Below, one piece after another: positions 17,915-27,514 of a DNA stretch of 64,000 nucleotides. The notes beneath the pieces are model-generated. The model ran no database searches, was not told the origin of the DNA, and saw only the letters and a list, made by a program, of their open reading frames with translations. The stretch covers positions 192,001 through 256,000 of the forward strand of contig CAXXFL010000002.1 of NCBI GenBank assembly GCA_963674965.2, given 5' to 3'. Both the position numbers and the translations under genes were made by a program. Source of the stretch: a bacterium. Its GTDB lineage: Bacteria; RBG-13-61-14; DATKZS01. The first letter of the stretch is position 1; the number at the start of each line of letters is the position of its first letter.

Positions 17915-19735
17915 TTACTTGGCCAGGTTCTCGAGGAAGCTTAGCCTTTTGCCGCCCTTGCCGATAAACTCGGTGACTTTATCCAGGCCGGCGCCCGCCA
18001 CGATGCTTCCATCCTTGATCGGCTCCGGGCGATGCATGCCTCTTCCCTTTTTGACCAGCACCTCGTCGCCGTAGGTATTGTAGTAGGTCCAGCGGACCGG
18101 AGTCTCGTGGGACTTGGGCCCTCCGTTATTAAGCTTGGCTTTCTTCTTGACGCCGTGGGTAATATACCTGGCCATGCCCCTGGTCAGAAGGGTGGGCGGT
18201 CCGATCTCCTTTTTATAGCGGTCCTCCAGGGCGGCCGCCTTCCTTCGTACCTCGTCGCTCGGGTGATGGGTCTTGATCGAGTGCATGAACGAGTAAAAGC
18301 CCGAGGCGATGAGCTTGTCGCGCTTGGCCAGGGCCTGGCGGAAGGGGTCCTGGTCGTTTTTATATTTGGCGTAGGCGTCCATCACGCTTTCCATCATCTG
18401 CATGGTGGGCGGCCCGTTCACGTCTCTCAGCCGGTCGTGGGCGTACTCGAACATCTCGCTGACCTCTTCCCGCGTGATGTTCTTGTAGGAGAACAACTGA
18501 TCGCCCCAGAAGTGGGCGTCCTCCCACCGGTAGGAATCGAGAATCCGCTCCTCCTCCAACATGCGGTCGTATAGCTCCGTTCCCGGGCAGGGAAGGATAT
18601 GCGATATCTGGTAGAACATGGGCTTCAATTGCACGAACTGCTCGATGTCCTCCTTCAAGTTCTCCTTGGTGTGGAAGTCGAACCCAACCACCATGGAACC
18701 GGTGGGCTGAATCCCGTGGGTACGCAAGCCCTCGAAGACCTCCTTGACCTGGTTGCCCTGGCGTTTCTGGTAGGTGTCCGAGGTCTCGTTCTCGCCCGCG
18801 AGAAAACTCTCGACCCCGATCCATACCATCTGGCAGCCGTTGTCCCTTATCTCCTCGGGCGTGAACTGGGAAAGGGACCTGATCGAGCCGAAGGTGTAAT
18901 ACCTCACTCCCCAGGTGCTCTTGTGAGAGCGAAGGAGCCTTCCCAGTTCGTGGACGTATTCCTTGTTGATGAAAAAATCCTCGTCCCAGAGCATGATAAG
19001 AAGTTCCCTAAAGCCCATGCGGCGCTGGAAGTTCCGGATAAAGCGGTAGACCTGCTCGGGCTCGGCCACGTAGATTTTATTCCTCTTGAAGAAGGCGCTG
19101 GTGTTGCAGAAGTCGCAGCCGCTGGGGCATCCCAGGCTGACGAGTATGGAGGGAATTCGAAGGCGGGCGCCGTCCGATTTAATCCCGCCCGAGTGTCCGA
19201 GGAACCCGCTTATGGAGAACATGGGCATGTTGTACTGGGTGATCTCCCTGTCGATGGGCTCGTCGCCCAGGACCCGGCGCAGGAAGCGCACTCCTTCCTC
19301 GCGGCAGAGGAAGTCGGCGTTCTCGCGGATGTAGTCGGCGTCGCCCTCGACGTCGCCGGGAACGGGCGTGGACAGGGCCGAGACCCCGTATCCGCCCACG
19401 ATGATCTTTGTGTCGGGACACTTCTCCCGCGTCAGTTTGATCATCCGGGCTATCTTGGCGGTGTGAAGGCTTTTGAGCTGGAAGCCCACGTAATCGTAGC
19501 CGTTCTCGAGTTCGGCCTCGAAGTCCTCCCAGGTGGGGTTCTCGAGCACCGTGGTCGGGTTGGTGACGTTTTCCGCCAAAAGATAAAGCGCGAAGTAATG
19601 GCCATACATGTCGAGCTGGAAATCCCCGTGCTTTCTGGTCCACCTGGTACTCATAAGGTTGAGGGGGTCCTCGCCCCGGAGGGGGGCGTTGGGGCAGTAG
19701 CTCGCCGTTAAAAGAACTCTCGGTTTGTTATTCAA
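17915..19735 (-). CDS. Cobalamin-binding-domain radical SAM protein
   Basis: N-terminal B12-binding-like segment (IIVGGYG), GCPSGCDFC, IGVES, PGT.LY; TTG start. Confidence 0.85.
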   Translation of the reverse strand: MNNKPRVLLTASYCPNAPLRGEDPLNLMSTRWTRKHGDFQLDMYGHYFALYLLAENVTNPTTVLENPTWEDFEAELENGYDYVGFQLKSLHTAKIARMIKLTREKCPDTKIIVGGYGVSALSTPVPGDVEGDADYIRENADFLCREEGVRFLRRVLGDEPIDREITQYNMPMFSISGFLGHSGGIKSDGARLRIPSILVSLGCPSGCDFCNTSAFFKRNKIYVAEPEQVYRFIRNFQRRMGFRELLIMLWDEDFFINKEYVHELGRLLRSHKSTWGVRYYTFGSIRSLSQFTPEEIRDNGCQMVWIGVESFLAGENETSDTYQKRQGNQVKEVFEGLRTHGIQPTGSMVVGFDFHTKENLKEDIEQFVQLKPMFYQISHILPCPGTELYDRMLEEERILDSYRWEDAHFWGDQLFSYKNITREEVSEMFEYAHDRLRDVNGPPTMQMMESVMDAYAKYKNDQDPFRQALAKRDKLIASGFYSFMHSIKTHHPSDEVRRKAAALEDRYKKEIGPPTLLTRGMARYITHGVKKKAKLNNGGPKSHETPVRWTYYNTYGDEVLVKKGRGMHRPEPIKDGSIVAGAGLDKVTEFIGKGGKRLSFLENLAK

Positions 19736-19942
19736 TTTATTTTCCTTATCCGCGCGAGGCGCGTTTTCGCGCGAGCGTCTCCATAAAGAGCGGACGCCCG
19801 CGTCCGGTTAGACTGAGGTTATTTGGATTTCACTCCCCAAGTCGGCCGGCAAAGGGGGGGCCGGATTTCCGTTATTCCCTCTCACGCGGGAAGTCCCCAC
19901 ACGGACGGGCCCTTTGGATATTTCCCTTCCAACCGACAATCA

Positions 19943-19971
19943 AGTCTAATGAGAAAAACTCGATTTGTCAA
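19943..19971 (-). promoter_or_regulatory. Candidate sigma70 promoter for radical SAM-dehalogenase genes
   Basis: Minus strand TTGACA-17 bp-TAGACT. Confidence 0.6.
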
Positions 19972-20155
19972 ATTCTTTGTTCAAATATAAAATGGCCCCC
20001 AAACGCGGGAAACCCGCTTGTTGAGCAGGTGGTAAAGAATATACACCAGTCGGTAAACCGGATAATATTGACGAAATATTATCATTCAATAGTATCCATG
20101 ACGCCAGGACATGGCAATAAAATACGGCCGGCGCCAACGCTTTTGGGGCGCTTGT

Positions 20156-21559
20156 TCACCGGTCGGGTCCGAAGTCCACGTCCGCTGCGGGCAGGTCTAG
20201 GTAGCGCCCGCTTTCGAGGGCCATCCTTACCGCTATGCCCAGGGCGTCGACCAGGTCGTCGTGTCCGGACTCGGGGAAGGCCAGCATCTCCTCGATCAAG
20301 TCGCCCGCCCCGGTCTCGGGAAAAGTAATCCTTCCCGTCTGCACCAGTCCCTGCAGCCTCATGGCCCGGGCCACCTTGTCCCTGGTCTGCACCACCGACG
20401 AGACCGGGACCCGGCCGTCGCCGCGCAGTCTCTGGACCAGGGCCTCCTGGTAGGAGTTGGACTCGATACCCACCGTCACCACGGGAAAGTCGGTCGAGTC
20501 GTGGGCCGCGAACAAGGTCTTCACCGTCTCGAACTGTTCCTCAAAGGTCAGGCGCGAGCGGTAGATCGAGACCAGGTGAATAGATTTGCCCGACGAGGCC
20601 ACGGTGACGTGGGCGAAGTAGTCGTTGTGGTCCGCCAGGCCGATGGCCAGGTCCACGCCCTGGAACTTCCGGCCCGCCGGCGGGGCCGGGCCGAAACGTA
20701 TCCACTCGGGACGGAATATCTTGCCCTGCATCAGGCTCACGTCGTTTTGATACTGGGAGTTGAATATGGCCGGGCCCGCCTCCTCCCGTTTTTTCCGCAG
20801 GGCCTTAAGAGGGAACTTCTCCTCCCACAGGGCCTTCTCCGATTCTCCGCTTCCCGTAATGGCCTTCTCGATATAAACGGGGACACCCCTTTTAATAAGC
20901 CGCCCGTAAAGGTCGTCGTAATGGTAGCGGGTGCCGATGACCCGAAGCTTGCCTCCGGGCTCGAGGGTGGGTAAAAGTACCTTGTAGTACCAGTTGAAGA
21001 GCCGCTCCCTGCCGCTCCTGGACCTGGCCGACTCCTCGTCCACCACGTCGTCCAGGATGATGAGGTCGTAATGCTTGCTGATGACGGGTCCCAGCGCGCC
21101 CAGGGCGGTGACGGTCGGCTCCTTGGCCGTTTTCGTTCGGGACGCGAGGCATATCTCGGTCTCGGTCCAGGGGGTCCCCTTCAGGCCTCCGGCGATCCGG
21201 ACCACCTCGGGGTTGGACTCGAGGTGGCTCTTGATCTCGCGCAGGAAACCCGAGGCCTGGGCCTGGGTGCTCGAGGCGATGAGCACCCTCACGTCGGGGT
21301 CATCGAGCGCCCGCCGCAGGGTATAGGCCACGGTCATGACGGTCGACTTCCCGTGCCCGCGAGGGGCGAGAAGGAGGGACGTCTCGCGGTCGGCGGCGAA
21401 CCTCCACCATCTCGAGTGGAAGTCGAGGAACTGGTAATTGAGGGTCTTGGTAACGAACTCTTCGTCGTCCTCCAAGGCCTCGGGCTGATCCCGGTTCTCG
21501 AGGAAGTCGATCCAGTTTTCAATCATCTCTCGCCTTTGCTTCCCACTGGCCTTACTCAT
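20156..21559 (-). CDS. Phage-type terminase large subunit
   Basis: Walker A APRGHGKST, Walker B IILDDVVD, IGTRYH, SQYQN, nuclease motifs GVDLA, IESN, HDDLVDAL. Confidence 0.92.
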   Translation of the reverse strand: MSKASGKQRREMIENWIDFLENRDQPEALEDDEEFVTKTLNYQFLDFHSRWWRFAADRETSLLLAPRGHGKSTVMTVAYTLRRALDDPDVRVLIASSTQAQASGFLREIKSHLESNPEVVRIAGGLKGTPWTETEICLASRTKTAKEPTVTALGALGPVISKHYDLIILDDVVDEESARSRSGRERLFNWYYKVLLPTLEPGGKLRVIGTRYHYDDLYGRLIKRGVPVYIEKAITGSGESEKALWEEKFPLKALRKKREEAGPAIFNSQYQNDVSLMQGKIFRPEWIRFGPAPPAGRKFQGVDLAIGLADHNDYFAHVTVASSGKSIHLVSIYRSRLTFEEQFETVKTLFAAHDSTDFPVVTVGIESNSYQEALVQRLRGDGRVPVSSVVQTRDKVARAMRLQGLVQTGRITFPETGAGDLIEEMLAFPESGHDDLVDALGIAVRMALESGRYLDLPAADVDFGPDR

Positions 21560-21605
21560 TTTTTCCTCCCTTCTATCCTGGTTGAAAGCTTTGCGCCGCC
21601 GCGAT

Positions 21606-22076
21606 TAGCCTGGGTCGCCCATGCATGATGCATGGGCGGCGCAAGCCGCGGGCTGATTTCCAATCTCCTTCGGGACCCCTTCCGGCCCTATCGGTCGCGA
21701 TTAATTACTTCGTCAAAATCTTCCACCCCCGCGTCCCCAGACCGTTCGCTTCGCTCACCCACGCATGATGCGTGGGCGACCCTTCGTGCCGGCGGAGTCA
21801 CCCCGCCCAGCGCGGGTGGCGCGGATAGCTCGCCTATCCGCGCGGCGAAGCCGTTGGATTTTCATGTACTAGCCTGGGTCGCCCATGCATCATGCATGGG
21901 CGGCGCAAGCCGCGGGCTGATTTCCAATCTTCTTCGCGACTTCTTCCGGCCCTATCGGTCGCGATTAATTACTTCGTCAAAATCTTCCACCCCCGCGTCC
22001 CCAGCCCGTTCGCTTCGCTCACCCACGCATGATGCGTGGGCGACCCTTCGTGCCGGCGGAGTCACCCCGCCCAGCG
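21606..22076. repeat. Direct duplication (~207 bp unit, 264 bp period) of a family B REP doublet, with a family C palindrome between the units
   Basis: 21606-21812 nearly identical to 21870-22076. Confidence 0.92.
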
Positions 22077-22704
22077 ATAAACCCGCGCAGATGGCGGCCA
22101 GGGCCTCGCCGTCCTCCTCGGTGCCGGTCTCCATTTTGACTTGCTCGATCCTTTGCTCGATGACTCTTTTTTCGTCGGGTGAGACGACGGCGGCGAAGAG
22201 CTCGAACTCGGGCTGAGGAACGCTCTCTGCTGCCGCGGCCTGGAGGGCTCCTTCCGCCTCCCCGGCGCTTTGGATGACCGACTCGATCATGCACTCGATC
22301 TCGCGGTCGGACCAGGGCAAGAGTGACGCCATCTCGGCGGCGCTCATCTCATGGCTCAGCTTTTCGAGGAGGGCGGCCAGAAGCTCGGGATCGTTTTCTC
22401 CATGGAGCTCGTTCATCTGGAGGGTCTTAAGCATGGCCTGGGCGTCGTCCAGTTCGGCCACCACCACCGGGACCCGGTCCAGTCCGGCCATATGGGCCGC
22501 CATAAGACGGTGTTCTCCGTCCACCACCTCGAGGCCGCGGCCTTTCCTTCTGGCCAGGATGGGCGCGGAAAAGCCTCGTTGTTCTATCTCCCGCGCCAGC
22601 TTGGCCAGCTTGACCGGACCCATGCGGTTGGGGTTCCATGGGTTGGGCGCGAGGTCCCCGGTGGGTACCCACTCGATCTCAATTCGGCTCGATCCACAGT
22701 CCAT
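21952..22704 (-). CDS. ParB/Sulfiredoxin N-terminal domain protein (phage type)
   Basis: L.PNPWNPN, GF..PI, VVDGEHR; 3' end reads through REP repeat. Confidence 0.85.
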   Translation of the reverse strand: MDCGSSRIEIEWVPTGDLAPNPWNPNRMGPVKLAKLAREIEQRGFSAPILARRKGRGLEVVDGEHRLMAAHMAGLDRVPVVVAELDDAQAMLKTLQMNELHGENDPELLAALLEKLSHEMSAAEMASLLPWSDREIECMIESVIQSAGEAEGALQAAAAESVPQPEFELFAAVVSPDEKRVIEQRIEQVKMETGTEEDGEALAAICAGLSLGGVTPPARRVAHASCVGERSERAGDAGVEDFDEVINRDR

Positions 22705-23326
22705 AGTAATAAACCATCCTTCCCCTTTTCCAGGCGTCAATGAATCCCTTGATCGCGAACCCTTTCCTTTCGGCCAGGTCGCGCCAGTACGCTTTCACGG
22801 CCAACTCGTGGTTGGCGGCCAGGACCGGTCCCGGCTTGGCCCATTGGCCGCCTCTTCGGCCCCCCGGCCTTCCCGGCCAGAGGGCCTCCGCCTTGACTTT
22901 TCCTCCCCTGGCCATGGCCAGCCTCGAGCCGTCGGTAACGGCGACGGCCACTCTCTCCCTTGGTCTCCAGTCCCGGAAAAACGCCTCGATCGTGGGCGCG
23001 GGATTTCCATAGGCGTCGAAGTCGAGGTAACAAATTCCCCCCAGCCTCGGGGCGATCTCCCGAGCGAACCGGAGGTTGTTCATCCTGAGGGGAATGACGT
23101 TCGAGACCGACTCCGCCTCGAGCCTCGAGAGGAGGGCCGAGAATTTTTTAGGGCTTCTCTCGACGGCAAAAACCCTCTCGAAGCCGCCCAGGACGCCGGC
23201 GGCCAGGGAACCGTCGCCCGCGTAAAGGTCGGCGGCCTCGCCGGGACGGACGCCCGCCGCGAGCCTCCTCCTGAGTATCCACTTGATCTCACGGAAACCG
23301 TGGTCCTTTTTTCGTCTCCCGCTCAT
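22679..23326 (-). CDS. SAM-dependent methyltransferase-like protein
   Basis: Motif I DLYAGDG, acidic VE after strand 2, motif IV-like DFDAYG; overlaps ParB start; GGGAGG RBS. Confidence 0.7.
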   Translation of the reverse strand: MSGRRKKDHGFREIKWILRRRLAAGVRPGEAADLYAGDGSLAAGVLGGFERVFAVERSPKKFSALLSRLEAESVSNVIPLRMNNLRFAREIAPRLGGICYLDFDAYGNPAPTIEAFFRDWRPRERVAVAVTDGSRLAMARGGKVKAEALWPGRPGGRRGGQWAKPGPVLAANHELAVKAYWRDLAERKGFAIKGFIDAWKRGRMVYYYGLWIEPN

Positions 23327-23360
23327 GGCGCTTCCTCCCGAGGAGCGCGTTGACTCGCGC

Positions 23361-23392
23361 TTGACAATACTCGCCAGAATGCCATAATTATA
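23361..23392. promoter_or_regulatory. Candidate overlapping divergent promoters
   Basis: Plus strand TTGACA-16 bp-CATAAT; minus strand TATAAT at 23387-23392. Confidence 0.5.
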
Positions 23393-23418
23393 AGTATGGA
23401 ATATTCAGGAGAATCGAC

Positions 23419-24666
23419 ATGAGTCTTGACAAGGAAAAACCCGGGACCGTGAAAGAGGAATGCATCGAGGACCACGAGGCCGAGACCGCGGCCCACGAGG
23501 CCTTCCAGGAGATGAAATCGGAGTCGGCCAAGCAAAGCGAGCGCGAGTACCAACGCATGGCCCTCGACCTCCGCTGGGAGGTCCTCGAGTACGTGGACGC
23601 CCATCCCGAGAAGTCGGTCGTCGAGATCGCCAGGCTCTTTGGCATCAAGGAGGGGTCCATACGGGCCTGGAAGGCGCACAGGACCATGGGAACCTATCGC
23701 GAAAATATGGCGGGCAAGGAAAAAACTACCCACCGGGCAAGACAGGCCCCGCTCTTCAAGAGCGAGGCGACGCCCAAGAACAATACGAGGAATTTCATCG
23801 AGAGGAAGCGCTACTCGAACTTCATCCACTTTTTCGACAAGACGCCTCCGGGCGTGGTGTGCCCCCATTTTTATATCCTGGCCCACGCCAACGGCTGCCC
23901 TTATTTCTGCGACTACTGCTACCTTCGGCTCACGCTCCGCCATTACCCCGAGCCCACGGTCTTCTCGAACACGGCCCGCATGTTCCAGGAGATTCGGGAC
24001 TGGCTCCTTTCCAACGAGAGGCCATCCATGCTCAACGCCGGAGAGCTTAGCGACGCCCTGGCCTGGGACCATGAAACCGGGCTCTCGGCCAATCTCATCT
24101 CGCTTTTCTCGGGGCAGTCGAGGCACAAGCTTCTGCTTTTGACCAAGTCCACCAACGTGGAGGGCATCCTTGGTCTCGAGCCCACGCCCCAGGCCGTGAT
24201 CAGCTTCTCCATCAACGCGGCCAAGGTCGCCCGCGCCTATGAAAGGGGGGCGCCCCCGCCGGAGAAAAGGCTCGAGTCCGCGGCGCGCCTGGCCGAGGCG
24301 GGGTGGGAGGTCCGGCTCCGGCTCGATCCCCTCATTCCCATCGAGGGATGGCGAGACGAGTACGCCTCCATGATCGACAAGATCAACGCCGTCGGACCCG
24401 GCGCGGTCACCCTCGGGTCCCTCAGGTTCTTTCGGGCCCTCCTCAGTCACGCTCCCCGCGGAACGGACGTCTTCGAGCATGGGGTCAACCATCAGGACCC
24501 GGACAACCGCCTTCGGGTACCGCTCGAGAAAAGACTCGAGATGTACCGATTCTGTCTCGAGAGGATCGAGGCCCCCCGCCTGGGCCTTTGCAAGGAAACC
24601 GAGCCGGTCCACCGGGAACTGGGACTTCCCGGCATGGGCCAGTCCTGCAACTGCACGGTCGAGTGA
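23419..24666 (+). CDS. Spore photoproduct lyase-like radical SAM protein with N-terminal HTH extension
   Basis: GCPYFCDYCYL, GELSD, LLTKS, RLDP, CKET, CNC; N-terminal SVVEIARLFGIKEGSIRAWK HTH; AGGAGA RBS. Confidence 0.85.
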   Translation: MSLDKEKPGTVKEECIEDHEAETAAHEAFQEMKSESAKQSEREYQRMALDLRWEVLEYVDAHPEKSVVEIARLFGIKEGSIRAWKAHRTMGTYRENMAGKEKTTHRARQAPLFKSEATPKNNTRNFIERKRYSNFIHFFDKTPPGVVCPHFYILAHANGCPYFCDYCYLRLTLRHYPEPTVFSNTARMFQEIRDWLLSNERPSMLNAGELSDALAWDHETGLSANLISLFSGQSRHKLLLLTKSTNVEGILGLEPTPQAVISFSINAAKVARAYERGAPPPEKRLESAARLAEAGWEVRLRLDPLIPIEGWRDEYASMIDKINAVGPGAVTLGSLRFFRALLSHAPRGTDVFEHGVNHQDPDNRLRVPLEKRLEMYRFCLERIEAPRLGLCKETEPVHRELGLPGMGQSCNCTVE

Positions 24667-24673
24667 GTTTGGT

Positions 24674-25063
24674 CTATTCATCTTCCATCTTCTCCCGCAA
24701 GGCCTCGATGATTTTTTTCTTCACGTCCTTGCGACGGATAATCGGACCCAAAGAGGGCACTTCCTCCATGGCCTCCCAGAGGACCTTCAGCTCGGTCATG
24801 GGTCCCGCGTCCTCCCCCTTGTCCGACTGGGCCAGGATGCGCATCTGGACCTCGATGGACTTGAGGGCGATCTGGGAGAGCTTGATCCTGTCGGCGCCTG
24901 TTTTGTCCTCGTCCTTTTCCGACATCAGTTCCTTGATGCTTATCATTTTCACGCCCTGGGTCTCGATGAACAGGTCTTCCAATTTGGCGGAACGCCTATC
25001 GAGTTTCGCCTTGGAACGAGCCGGTTTTTTTAGCCTTGCCGTCTTTTTTACCGTCTTTTTCAT
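24674..25063 (-). CDS. Small basic/helical hypothetical protein (possible terminase small subunit-like)
   Basis: 129 aa, GGAGG RBS, Lys/Arg-rich N-terminus, co-oriented with terL; function is inference. Confidence 0.6.
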   Translation of the reverse strand: MKKTVKKTARLKKPARSKAKLDRRSAKLEDLFIETQGVKMISIKELMSEKDEDKTGADRIKLSQIALKSIEVQMRILAQSDKGEDAGPMTELKVLWEAMEEVPSLGPIIRRKDVKKKIIEALREKMEDE

Positions 25064-25529
25064 GGTCCCTCCTTTGCCATTTTCAAGAAGCGCCGATTTC
25101 GGGTGGCCACAGCCTTGCTAATTGCCTTGGTTTTAGCTTGGCAAATTGCCTTCCTACTATAGGGAATTGGGGCGCACCAGAGATTACTTTTTTACATCAT
25201 CATATTGGTGGAAGTTGCTCGAATTACCTGAACCGAGTGGTACATCCTATGGCCCATCATGGAAAAAGGCTTGTAAATCAGCGGTTTACGATTGACTGAT
25301 ATTTACCGACATTTTAAATGGCGGACTTTGGCGCAAAATGGCATTATATTGCTTATATGTCTGGAATTGTTGCATAATATTAAATATGTACTTATATATC
25401 ACAGATCGGTTGCACGAGCTTTATCCATTCCAATATTTAATGGCGTCAAAAAATGATTTTTCAGGTCCCGGGCCAATTGTCAATATATCTCTTCGATTTT
25501 AATAGAGAAATATTTTTTATTGTCAAAGT

Positions 25530-25545
25530 TGGCCCGCGAATTGCT
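25530..25545 (+). promoter_or_regulatory. Candidate sigma54 (-24/-12) promoter
   Basis: TGGC-CCGCGAA-TTGCT with canonical spacing, 35 bp before an ORF. Confidence 0.5.
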
Positions 25546-25579
25546 ATTTAGGCGTGTATAATATGAAAGGAGCGATAAA

Positions 25580-25849
25580 ATGGAACGGTCCCGTAAAGTA
25601 AGAATAGTTATGATGAGTTCCGACGTGATGAAGCTTTATGACGTCATGGGTACCCGAGACGACTTCGAGTTTCAGCCCATCACCTTCTACGATCCCCAGG
25701 AATGCCTGGACATGCTCATCGACGTCGACCCCGAGGAAGAGGACTATGGCGGGTCGATCGAGAGGACCAACGCCGAGAAACTGGAAAAGCAGTGGGGCGA
25801 ACTCGAGCTTCGGCTTTCCTTCTTCACCGACGCCCAAAGGTGGCAGTAA
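25580..25849 (+). CDS. Small acidic hypothetical protein
   Basis: 89 aa, AAAGGAG RBS, host-like codons. Confidence 0.65.
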   Translation: MERSRKVRIVMMSSDVMKLYDVMGTRDDFEFQPITFYDPQECLDMLIDVDPEEEDYGGSIERTNAEKLEKQWGELELRLSFFTDAQRWQ

Positions 25850-26162
25850 TTGGATCGGCCGACCCCGTTCGCGGCCATGCGGCCTTTCGGACCGAGCTTC
25901 GGCCCGAAGCCGGAGCCCATCGCTCAGATATTGCCCCAGCCCGACAATTCCCGGCGCCGTTATATCAATCCGTTCTAATTTACCCGACATAACCGATCCC
26001 TTGTCCGTCCGAAGCGAAGCCGTACCTTGCCCGGAGTGAGGCCTCCCGATTTCCGCCGGCGTGACACTAACCGCAAAATATGATACCCTGTATAAATATA
26101 AACGGAGGCGCCGTGCCCTTATGCCGGGACCCTGGGCCGCCGCGATCTCCGGGGATTGAAAA

Positions 26163-26699
26163 ATGAAGATTGGAGTCATATCGGATACCCACGTGTCGGG
26201 CGCAAGCCTTCACCCCAAGAAACTCGCCAGCCGCGTCATCAATAAAGTGAACGAGTCGGCCTCCGTCCTGTGCGAAACCGTGCGGCCCTACTTCGGCGAC
26301 GTGGACCTGATCCTTCACGCCGGCGACTTCGTGTGCATCGACGTGATGACGGCCCTCGAGGAGTTCGCTCCCGTCGAGGCGGTGGCCGGAAACATGGACC
26401 CCTACGAGATCAGCTCGAGGCTCGAGACCAAAAGGGTGGTGAGCGCGGGCGGCATGAAGATCGGCATGATGCACGGGTGGGGCCCTCCCGCCGGGCTCGA
26501 GAAGAAAATCAGGAAACACTTCGACGACGTGGACCTGATCGTTTTCGGACACACCCATTACCCCTTTGATAAAGAGGTGGCCGGCGTCCATATGTTCAAC
26601 CCCGGCTCTCCCACCGACCGAAGATGGGCCCCCTCCCACTCGATAGGAATCATCGAGGTGGACAAGGAATTGAAGACCAGCCACGTTCAACTGGACTGA
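26163..26699 (+). CDS. YfcE/MJ0936-family metallophosphoesterase
   Basis: ISDTH, HAGD, GNMD, HG, GHTH, NPGS. Confidence 0.92.
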   Translation: MKIGVISDTHVSGASLHPKKLASRVINKVNESASVLCETVRPYFGDVDLILHAGDFVCIDVMTALEEFAPVEAVAGNMDPYEISSRLETKRVVSAGGMKIGMMHGWGPPAGLEKKIRKHFDDVDLIVFGHTHYPFDKEVAGVHMFNPGSPTDRRWAPSHSIGIIEVDKELKTSHVQLD

Positions 26700-26768
26700 A
26701 AATTTTCGCCTGGGCCCTTTTTCTGGGCCTTTTTTCATTCGGGGATTTCTCTTGCCGGCATATTTCTC

Positions 26769-26802
26769 TTGACAACGCTTCTTTTAGTTAGTATTAACTA
26801 AA
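26769..26802 (+). promoter_or_regulatory. Promoter with overlapping TetR-type operator
   Basis: TTGACA at 26769; perfect inverted repeat TTTAGTTA-GTAT-TAACTAAA at 26783-26802. Confidence 0.7.
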
Positions 26803-26858
26803 TAGACCGGCGGGTATATCCTATTCGCCGGTCTTAAAGGAAGGAGAAAAGGCGGCGC

Positions 26859-27494
26859 ATGGCGAAAAACCGGATGAAGGCCGAGGACAGGAGGCGGGAG
26901 ATACTCGAGGCGGCGGTGAGGACCATCGCGGCCAACAACTTCGAGAAGGCCACCACCGCCATGATCGCGAGGGAGGCGGGGGTCACGGAGCCGCTTATCT
27001 ATCACCACTTCAAGAACAAGCGGGGCCTGCAACTGGCGGTGCTGGAGGCGGTCAAGGAGAACGTGCTCTCCAGGTCCGAGGAGATGAAGGAACTGGATTC
27101 CGTCTCCATGAGCCGTCTTCGCTCTTACGGCAAACAAAGGCAGCGCGAGATAAGGCGCAACCCGGAGCACGTCAAGATCATGATCAAGGCCCTGGCGGTG
27201 GAGGACAAGAAGATCAAGGAGAAGGCCTGGGAGATCATGGAGTCGGGCCAGTCGCTGGTCCGGATGCTTCTCTCGAGGGCGGTCCGGCAAGGCGAGTTGG
27301 ACGACAAGGTGGACGTCGAGATGGGCGCCTGGCTGATCGTCGCCTGGGCCGGGCTATTATCCATCGTCAATATCCTGGGCAAGGCCGAACGGATTCCGGA
27401 GGAGCGGATCGACCGGTTCGTCGCCCTGATGGACTCGTACATGACCCTGGGCATGGCGCCCGAGGGCAAAAGCGCGTCCACAAGAAAGAAGTAA
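26859..27494 (+). CDS. TetR/AcrR-family regulator
   Basis: RRREILEAA...IAREAGVTEPLIYHHFKNK. Confidence 0.93.
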   Translation: MAKNRMKAEDRRREILEAAVRTIAANNFEKATTAMIAREAGVTEPLIYHHFKNKRGLQLAVLEAVKENVLSRSEEMKELDSVSMSRLRSYGKQRQREIRRNPEHVKIMIKALAVEDKKIKEKAWEIMESGQSLVRMLLSRAVRQGELDDKVDVEMGAWLIVAWAGLLSIVNILGKAERIPEERIDRFVALMDSYMTLGMAPEGKSASTRKK

Positions 27495-27514
27495 TTATCG
27501 CCAATGAGGAGGGA

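Follow-up and report, generated by a model that had tools for sequence, protein, structure and literature searches.

To our knowledge, only a handful of independent lineages of gene transfer agents (GTAs) are known, and most work on them has been based on alphaproteobacterial examples. Here we describe a cassette of five genes that is probably (at roughly 60%) the packaging module of a domesticated, phage-derived, GTA-like particle system (a 'viriform'), present in the ancestor of a small uncultured bacterial phylum and split into two loci in the genome analysed (G000; 6.5 Mb, 7 contigs). The window, i.e., the whole stretch of DNA analysed, is 64,000 nucleotides (nt) long (C2:192001-256000), and the cassette lies at window positions 20156-25063 (C2:212156-217063). 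It encodes a large terminase (TerL), a ParB-like protein, a Trm1/RsmD-like methyltransferase (MTase), a radical S-adenosylmethionine (SAM) enzyme with a helix-turn-helix (HTH) segment and likeness to spore photoproduct lyase (SPL), and a basic protein of 129 amino acids (aa), orf129. The ParB-like, MTase and HTH-SPL-like radical SAM genes are hereafter called the trio.

The RcGTA-type Rhodogtaviriformidae, BaGTA and VSH-1, as outlined in a preprint (10.1101/2022.06.10.494566), share with the present element a small tailed-phage head-tail set (about 18.5 kb here) that is endogenised, vertically inherited and co-diversifying. Unlike these GTAs, the element described here belongs to a different phylum, the nearest phage TerLs are 29-42% identical to its own, and the ParB-like, MTase and divergent radical SAM genes precede TerL in place of a recognised small terminase.

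The trio resembles phage DNA-modification modules, and a role in DNA chemistry is predicted by analogy. The SPL-like radical SAM protein gp53 of Pseudomonas phage M6 is reported to install a thymidine hypermodification (PMC8989533), and phage ParB homologues to activate a DNA base-modifying enzyme, with ParB-dependent thymine dioxygenases described (PMC13229309). Common to these modules and the cassette are an SPL-fold radical SAM enzyme for DNA, a ParB-fold partner beside modifying enzymes and a phage-derived context. The cassette differs from them in that none of its five proteins matched kinase, amino-acid:DNA transferase or dioxygenase families, the MTase is Trm1/RsmD-like, the radical SAM enzyme carries an N-terminal HTH and a C-terminal cysteine motif, and the module is chromosomal and phylum-wide. 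The ParB fold is also reported to be often fused to DNA methyltransferases in phages (phrog_498; PMC12704722). The cassette likewise pairs a ParB N-terminal domain with a SAM methyltransferase near packaging genes, but as two separate overlapping genes, and its MTase is not of the N6_N4 or Methyltransf_23 type. The main text of that article has 0 occurrences each of terminase and radical SAM.

Two enzyme families were compared individually. With SplB (PDB 4fhc and related), the cassette enzyme shares the fold family PF20903 (86 bits, cut-off 27), the CX3CX2C cluster motif and a presumed DNA substrate. It scores, however, far below the cut-off of the SPL equivalog model TIGR04070 (97.5 bits, cut-off 400) and is thus not SPL proper, has an added N-terminal HTH and conserved C-terminal cysteines, and sits in a terminase operon rather than in a sporulation or repair context. 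The Trm1/RsmD N2-guanine RNA methyltransferases gave the best structural match of the MTase model (Foldseek against PDB, Trm1 3axs, E 2.7e-9, TMq 0.66), a weak TIGR00308 match (15.9 bits, cut-off 280.65) and one family member tagged PF03602. The likeness is at the level of fold only, and the cassette MTase, at 215 aa, is without the Trm1 C-terminal domain (target-normalised TM-score 0.39) and belongs to a terminase operon. Literature searches, made by gene combination only, returned no account of this cassette, nor of a GTA from a lineage of this kind.

The collection searched holds 13 species genomes of the phylum (G000 and 12 relatives, G001-G012), of which 11 form one order (G000-G010) and two (G011, G012) make up family f5 outside it. 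The first-pass annotation had described the terminase as an orphan with no virion genes. This is true of the neighbourhood, as no portal or capsid gene was found within the window with the queries used, and wrong for the genome: the terminase is not an orphan, because the same genome carries a matching portal-capsid-tail block of 13.3 kb on a separate contig (C1:111053-124360). The block was found by searching G000 with the proteins encoded directly 3' of the TerL orthologue in G011. The G011 portal, scaffold-like, decoration and capsid proteins and two further proteins matched C1:117775-124351 only, with 33-57% identity. Searches of G000 with PF04860, PF05065 and PF05133 gave no match; these models do not reach a portal and capsid of such divergence, and only the G011 orthologues brought the two to light. 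In order, the block encodes a portal (439 aa), a 371-aa protein, a decoration protein (120 aa), a capsid-like protein (339 aa) and a 463-aa protein, followed by a Mu-Gp36-like connector, several tail-like proteins and, at the end, an SLT lytic transglycosylase. Its family matches include head decoration phrog_122 (E 7.6e-18), phrog_24071, phrog_27684, Mu Gp36, minor tail protein and SLT. The block is intact, and host genes surround both it and the cassette.

TerL, portal and capsid are each single-copy in 13/13 phylum genomes. In four relatives (G001, G002, G004, G005), the portal and capsid genes come directly after TerL and are co-directional with it, while in two others (G003, G007) the cassette is inverted and 9-12 kb from the portal, or 6-12 kb when the metagenome loci L117, L126 and L127 are included. 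In G000, TerL and portal lie on separate contigs, as they do in G006 and G008-G010, whose assemblies are fragmented. Where contiguous, the gene order is orf129, HTH-radical SAM (divergent), MTase, ParB, TerL, portal, scaffold-like, decoration and major capsid genes, then those for the connector, tail proteins and lytic transglycosylase. The contiguous element of G001 measures about 18.5 kb (C18:33669-52155), and its tail-end flank is syntenic, between genera, with G000 C1:108985-111032. Cassette orthologues occur in 11/11 genomes of the order, with the trio accompanying TerL in all 11: G001-G005 and G007-G009 keep the syntenic arrangement orf129, radical SAM, MTase, ParB, TerL, and the MTase and ParB orthologues of G006 and G010 adjoin either TerL or the radical SAM gene. 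Relatives do not share the DNA that flanks the cassette. Across 30 metagenome loci, the MTase gene lies beside the radical SAM gene in 24/24 with upstream sequence; ParB is found in 21 and TerL in 14. The TerL gene of G007 is broken by runs of N, and a reading of it as a pseudogene was rejected since the apparent split is due to these runs.

The divergence of the particle genes is host-like, equal to or below that of the host GTPase Der, with identities to G000 that fall with taxonomic rank. Values for family f1, the rest of the order and f5 were, respectively, 74-77%, 62-71% and 53-55% for the capsid; 69-72%, 61-64% and 57-58% for the portal; 59-62%, 49-55% and 48-49% for TerL (48-62% over the 12 relatives); and 60-64%, 49-56% and 52-54% for the host GTPase Der. 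Spearman's rho against Der, to be read as descriptive only, was 0.68-0.71. In a TerL phylogeny (quick IQ-TREE run, 45 rows), all 20 phylum sequences formed one clade (support 94 in the Shimodaira-Hasegawa-like approximate likelihood-ratio test) apart from the 25 best IMG/VR terminases. Within it, f5 was basal (100), f1 formed one clade (100) and f3 another with metagenome relatives (100), a branching in line with the host families. Among GenBank phages the closest TerL was 28.7% identical, and the closest in IMG/VR 42%. A total of 80 IMG/VR loci gave no BLAST match to the portal, capsid, radical SAM or MTase, and pattern-seeded IMG/VR scans with the radical SAM and capsid alignments gave no confirmed relatives. 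The set looks vertically inherited and, as judged from these comparisons, the element is not a circulating phage.

The ratio of nonsynonymous to synonymous substitution rates (dN/dS) was 0.13-0.33 across TerL, ParB, MTase and radical SAM genes in three close pairs (TerL 0.17-0.21; ParB 0.17-0.33; radical SAM 0.13). These four genes are under purifying selection, and the cassette is syntenic in relatives; this is not a single-strain locus with a ratio near 1. The view that the module is retained, and not part of a decaying prophage, was thus borne out by the occurrence of the cassette across the order, by TerL in every phylum genome and by invariant catalytic motifs.

We compared the element with the published list of six GTA attributes, in which, according to the same preprint (10.1101/2022.06.10.494566), packaging of mostly random host DNA, a head capacity below the element's own genes and delivery to other cells are included. 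Three attributes, all at the gene level, were found: particle genes derived from a tailed phage (TerL, portal-like, decoration, capsid-like, connector, tail-like and SLT), known from genes alone; full endogenisation, often at several loci, of which there are two here; and mostly vertical inheritance with host co-diversification, as seen in the 13/13 distribution, the TerL tree and identities tracking rank and Der. The element is a candidate GTA. Of the three functions that the first-pass annotation had offered, a dispersed GTA packaging unit fits best (a matching block on another contig, directly after TerL in four relatives). Defence and DNA marking are possible mainly as roles of the trio.

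In the mechanism we propose, a rearrangement in G000 would have parted the first five genes on C2 from the portal-to-tail block on C1. TerL would use its ATPase and nuclease to cut DNA and pump it into procapsids encoded by the C1 block. The ParB-like protein, whose translation is coupled to that of TerL in relatives, may be a DNA-binding or adaptor partner, acting either like a small terminase or as an activator of modifying enzymes. Together with the Trm1/RsmD-like MTase and the SPL-like radical SAM enzyme, presumably directed at DNA, it would mark the DNA, either ahead of packaging or while this is under way. The trio would be a DNA-modification module, a small-terminase substitute, or both, and orf129 is possibly a small-terminase-like or scaffold-like factor. 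A bolder version, in which this is a phylum-wide new GTA type with its own DNA-chemistry module and the transferred DNA is covalently marked, possibly by an undescribed base modification, seems to us doubtful. If true, such a mark could, for example, allow the DNA past the restriction barriers of recipients or be recognised as 'self'.

If the packaging-module reading is correct, the locus would document an independent phage domestication in an uncultured lineage, with a phylum-wide, single-copy, selected head-tail-terminase set. No earlier case would have a terminase linked to its own module of ParB, methyltransferase and radical SAM genes. New DNA-directed chemistry might be sought in two compact candidates, the HTH-SPL-like radical SAM enzyme and the MTase family, which has 34 clusters. 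Relatives, with their split, inverted and contiguous arrangements, would form a natural series on which genes must stay together.

Several observations weigh against this reading. In f5, TerL lies in the head module without the MTase or orthologous ParB and radical SAM genes; a sigma-r4-type HTH protein and a small open reading frame (ORF) precede it, and portal-like, scaffold-like, decoration and capsid-like proteins follow. The particle set as such can hence do without the trio. Set away from TerL in G011 is a stand-alone run (C1:122736-126292; L173:4847-8403) that comprises lexA, a 123-aa ORF, a ParB-like gene interrupted by an in-frame TAA, and genes for an N6_N4 DNA methylase and an SPL-like radical SAM protein whose closest G000 relative is the cassette enzyme (31% identity), which indicates that such trios can stand alone. 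The capsid and portal calls rest on gene order and on weak matches below cut-off (Phage_capsid_4, E 0.001; Portal_Mu, E 0.005), and a capsid profile gave no match to PDB sequences. By fold, the MTase is closest to enzymes that act on RNA rather than DNA. A recognised small terminase was not found, and no homology was detected between orf129 and the two small proteins 5' of the f5 TerL (hhalign probability <1%). The 13 phylum genomes are mutually related and several metagenome loci may come from organisms already represented among them (L117 and G003 have identical TerLs), so that counts overstate independence. Relatives can also be missed in pattern-seeded IMG/VR scans.

The same conservation data would be expected of a defective prophage conserved for a purpose other than transfer, such as killing by a PBSX-like particle, lysis-linked release of cell contents, or roles in biofilms or predation, with packaging by TerL as a by-product. 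The lytic transglycosylase at the end of the block is in keeping with this explanation, and the data do not discriminate between fates of packaged DNA. On the other hand, an intact ATPase-nuclease terminase and a portal under purifying selection phylum-wide suggest that packaging itself matters, and we consider a non-transfer particle unlikely.

Less likely still is an autonomous defence or DNA-marking system, in which the trio would modify the chromosome and TerL would act as a translocase-nuclease effector against unmodified (e.g., phage) DNA, independently of the capsid genes. It would account for a cassette that in many lineages is physically separate from the portal and travels as one piece, and for the trio of ParB-like, DNA methylase and SPL-like radical SAM genes beside lexA in G011. 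The f3-type loci (L124, L125, L126, L128, L132) point the same way, with 1-7 kb of extra genes between ParB and TerL: two for radical SAM proteins, one SPL-like (384 aa) and one further (313-323 aa), a PF04463 2-thiouracil-desulfurase-like gene and an HTH_3 + Peptidase_M78 regulator. So do two loci from other phyla, L167 (G167:C10) and L168 (G384:C223), where an SPL-like radical SAM domain is fused within a protein of 673-719 aa. The G167 fusion, which was scanned with Pfam, has as neighbours a ResIII helicase and two proteins of Schlafen/AlbA_2-HATPase_c_4 and DprA-like type, and its neighbourhood looks like a defence or DNA-modification island; the ORF layout in G384 is similar. Against autonomy, the cassette TerL is orthologous to the f5 TerL, itself inside a head module, and every genome with TerL has exactly one matching portal and capsid. 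PADLOC 2.0 defence models gave no match for TerL, the radical SAM protein or orf129; ParB matched MTase_II models (E 1.3e-11) via its ParB domain only, and the MTase had one weak mad2 match (E 2.9e-4). Nor does G000 have another terminase for the C1 block, because its second TerL-like gene, on C6, is part of an element of patchy distribution that brings a portal of its own.

That second phage-like remnant (C6:956041-967423; L028) encodes a TerL-like protein of 508 aa, an inserted AbiEi/AbiEii pair, a lambda-type portal-like protein of 549 aa and a 1523-aa MuF fusion. In contrast to the cassette TerL, its TerL is found in only 2/13 phylum genomes, with 88% identity to G003, and the C6 element behaves like a normal mobile element.

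An active, unusual small temperate phage or satellite widespread in the phylum is very improbable. The head and packaging genes are typical of tailed phages, and each of the five cassette genes is intact, as are those for head and tail. However, there is one copy per genome in all 13, divergence is host-like, and synteny of the tail-end flank extends between genera. In G000 the element is divided between two contigs (769 kb and 1.6 Mb), and no close IMG/VR relatives were found. The universal distribution likewise differs from that of an integrated temperate prophage. Within the window there was no tRNA, and the ORFs scanned included no genes for replication or integration, with no search aimed specifically at integrases. 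Least probable of all, a decaying prophage remnant or an assembly artefact, for which the lack of virion genes in the window and the invasion of the cassette by host repetitive extragenic palindromic (REP) elements might speak, is already contradicted by the conservation data, i.e., the dN/dS values and invariant motifs, and the cassette is host-flanked and lies >190 kb inside a 769-kb contig, its partner block intact.

Table 1 Features of the cassette and the adjoining DNA, in window positions (pLDDT, predicted local distance difference test)
Feature	Positions	Strand	Evidence or remark
TerL (large terminase, packaging ATPase + nuclease), 467 aa	20156-21559	-	phrog_38 E 1.5e-95; Terminase_6C E 7.2e-11
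REP-like palindromic repeat cluster (host) between ParB and TerL	21600-22065		about 45-60 genomic matches per unit
ParB/Srx-fold protein, 262-aa ORF	21952-22740	-	PF02195 (ParB_N) E 5.9e-12; phrog_723 E 6.2e-25; phrog_498 E 4e-21
Small class I SAM methyltransferase, Trm1/RsmD-like, 215 aa	22679-23326	-	AlphaFold model pLDDT 82.4; overlaps ParB by 62 nt
Near-consensus sigma-70-type promoter of radical SAM gene (TTGACA, 16 nt, TG-CATAAT)	23361-23388	+	11/12 positions match
HTH + SPL-like radical SAM enzyme, 415 aa	23419-24666	+	PF20903 E 2.8e-24; HTH_28 E 0.005
orf129, 129-aa basic helical protein	24674-25063	-	Lys/Arg-rich N-terminus; low-confidence helical-hairpin model, pLDDT 58
AT-rich intergenic region, 516 bp, GC about 0.47, promoter-like sites	25064-25579		between orf129 and 89-aa gene; no Rfam match
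89-aa acidic protein gene	25580-25849	+	tblastn 44-55% identity in G003/L117, L131, L119

The five genes were all confirmed at their annotated positions by ORFs and family matches (Table 1), as were the overlap of ParB and MTase, the inversion of the radical SAM gene (on the + strand amid - genes), the host REP insertions and the flanking host genes, which are ordinary metabolic genes on both sides. TerL is uninterrupted, as had been claimed, and its Walker A (APRGHGKS), Walker B (DLIILDDVVDE) and nuclease acids (D303, E366, D434/D435/D438) are invariant in an alignment of 10 orthologues. With these ATPase motifs and RNase H-like acidic residues it is a Terminase_6-type large terminase, and it also scores above the TIGR01630 cut-off (61.3 bits, cut-off 41.65). 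ParB and TerL abut or overlap by 4 nt in relatives, with no REP-filled gap. In G000, a REP copy runs into the 3' end of ParB and lengthens its C-terminus by ~44 non-conserved residues.

The conserved portion of the ParB-like protein comprises about residues 13-218, with NPWNPNR, DGEHR and KTLQLNxLRGE invariant or nearly so in 18 orthologues. It has the ParB_N fold (PF02195) only, and falls below the cut-off of the chromosomal/plasmid partition model TIGR00180 (42.2 bits, cut-off 58.45). The MTase motifs DLFAGxG, VEKD and DFDAYGxP are conserved in 27 orthologues, and a profile search against PDB matched RNA methyltransferases. All matches in its 34 clusters, found among 5.8 billion proteins, are at the orthologue level. 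A predicted complex of MTase and ParB scored 0.08 against a mark of 0.32, which speaks neither for nor against an interaction.

The radical SAM gene is divergent from the MTase-ParB-TerL operon, and the TTGAC(A/C)...(A/T)-rich -10 arrangement is kept 5' of it in orthologous loci across lineages. By profile, its product matched SPL in PDB (4fhg, E 5.6e-20). Nine orthologues share, without variation, the CPYxCDYC cluster motif, C391/C410/C412 and the HTH segment at the N-terminus. Of 401 genomes searched, only G000-G010 gave the full-length HTH-radical SAM form, and the catalytic domain alone is widespread (104/388 other-phylum genomes at E <= 1e-25, best 8e-77). In two otherwise near-identical metagenome loci, L122 and L121, the spacer between MTase and radical SAM genes is 2,068 and 241 nt, respectively (~1.8 kb inserted). 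A 452-aa ORF at 23323-24681 (-) was rejected as a gene, being an antisense shadow of the radical SAM gene.

orf129 is conserved in position in G001, G002, G003, G007 and five metagenome loci (20-37% identity). Its nearest Atlas clusters are viral, and the nearest named one, the T5 small terminase (score 0.87), serves as a lead only. Beyond it, the 89-aa gene is a real gene that is kept beside orf129 in family-f1-type loci. The 211-aa ORF 'orf211' at 25544-26179 (-) was rejected as a shadow of this gene on the other strand. An Rfam search over window positions 19000-27500 gave no match at E <= 0.1.

Just 5' of the portal gene in G000, a motif of 29-43 nt (C1:124398-124440) recurs 5' of a gene present in 4-5 copies (C5:346690-347859, C5:567987-570227, C6:6735-7760 and C3:165057-166238; at C5:227434 the motif only). 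It could be a shared promoter or the scar of a rearrangement breakpoint.

GC content is 0.60-0.64 in the cassette versus 0.57-0.60 in the contigs. The first-pass count of about 15 CTCGAG sites proved to be exactly 15 in 20156-25063, i.e., 3.06 per kb versus 1.66 per kb in the genome and 0.31 expected from base composition, and 8% of 1,322 genome tiles of the same size hold 15 or more. As CTCGAG is five-fold over-represented genome-wide, the richness of the cassette in this site is a host-like trait. Other sites are strongly avoided throughout G000, including CCTAGG (0.016 per kb), CAGCTG (0.021) and GGATCC (0.033).

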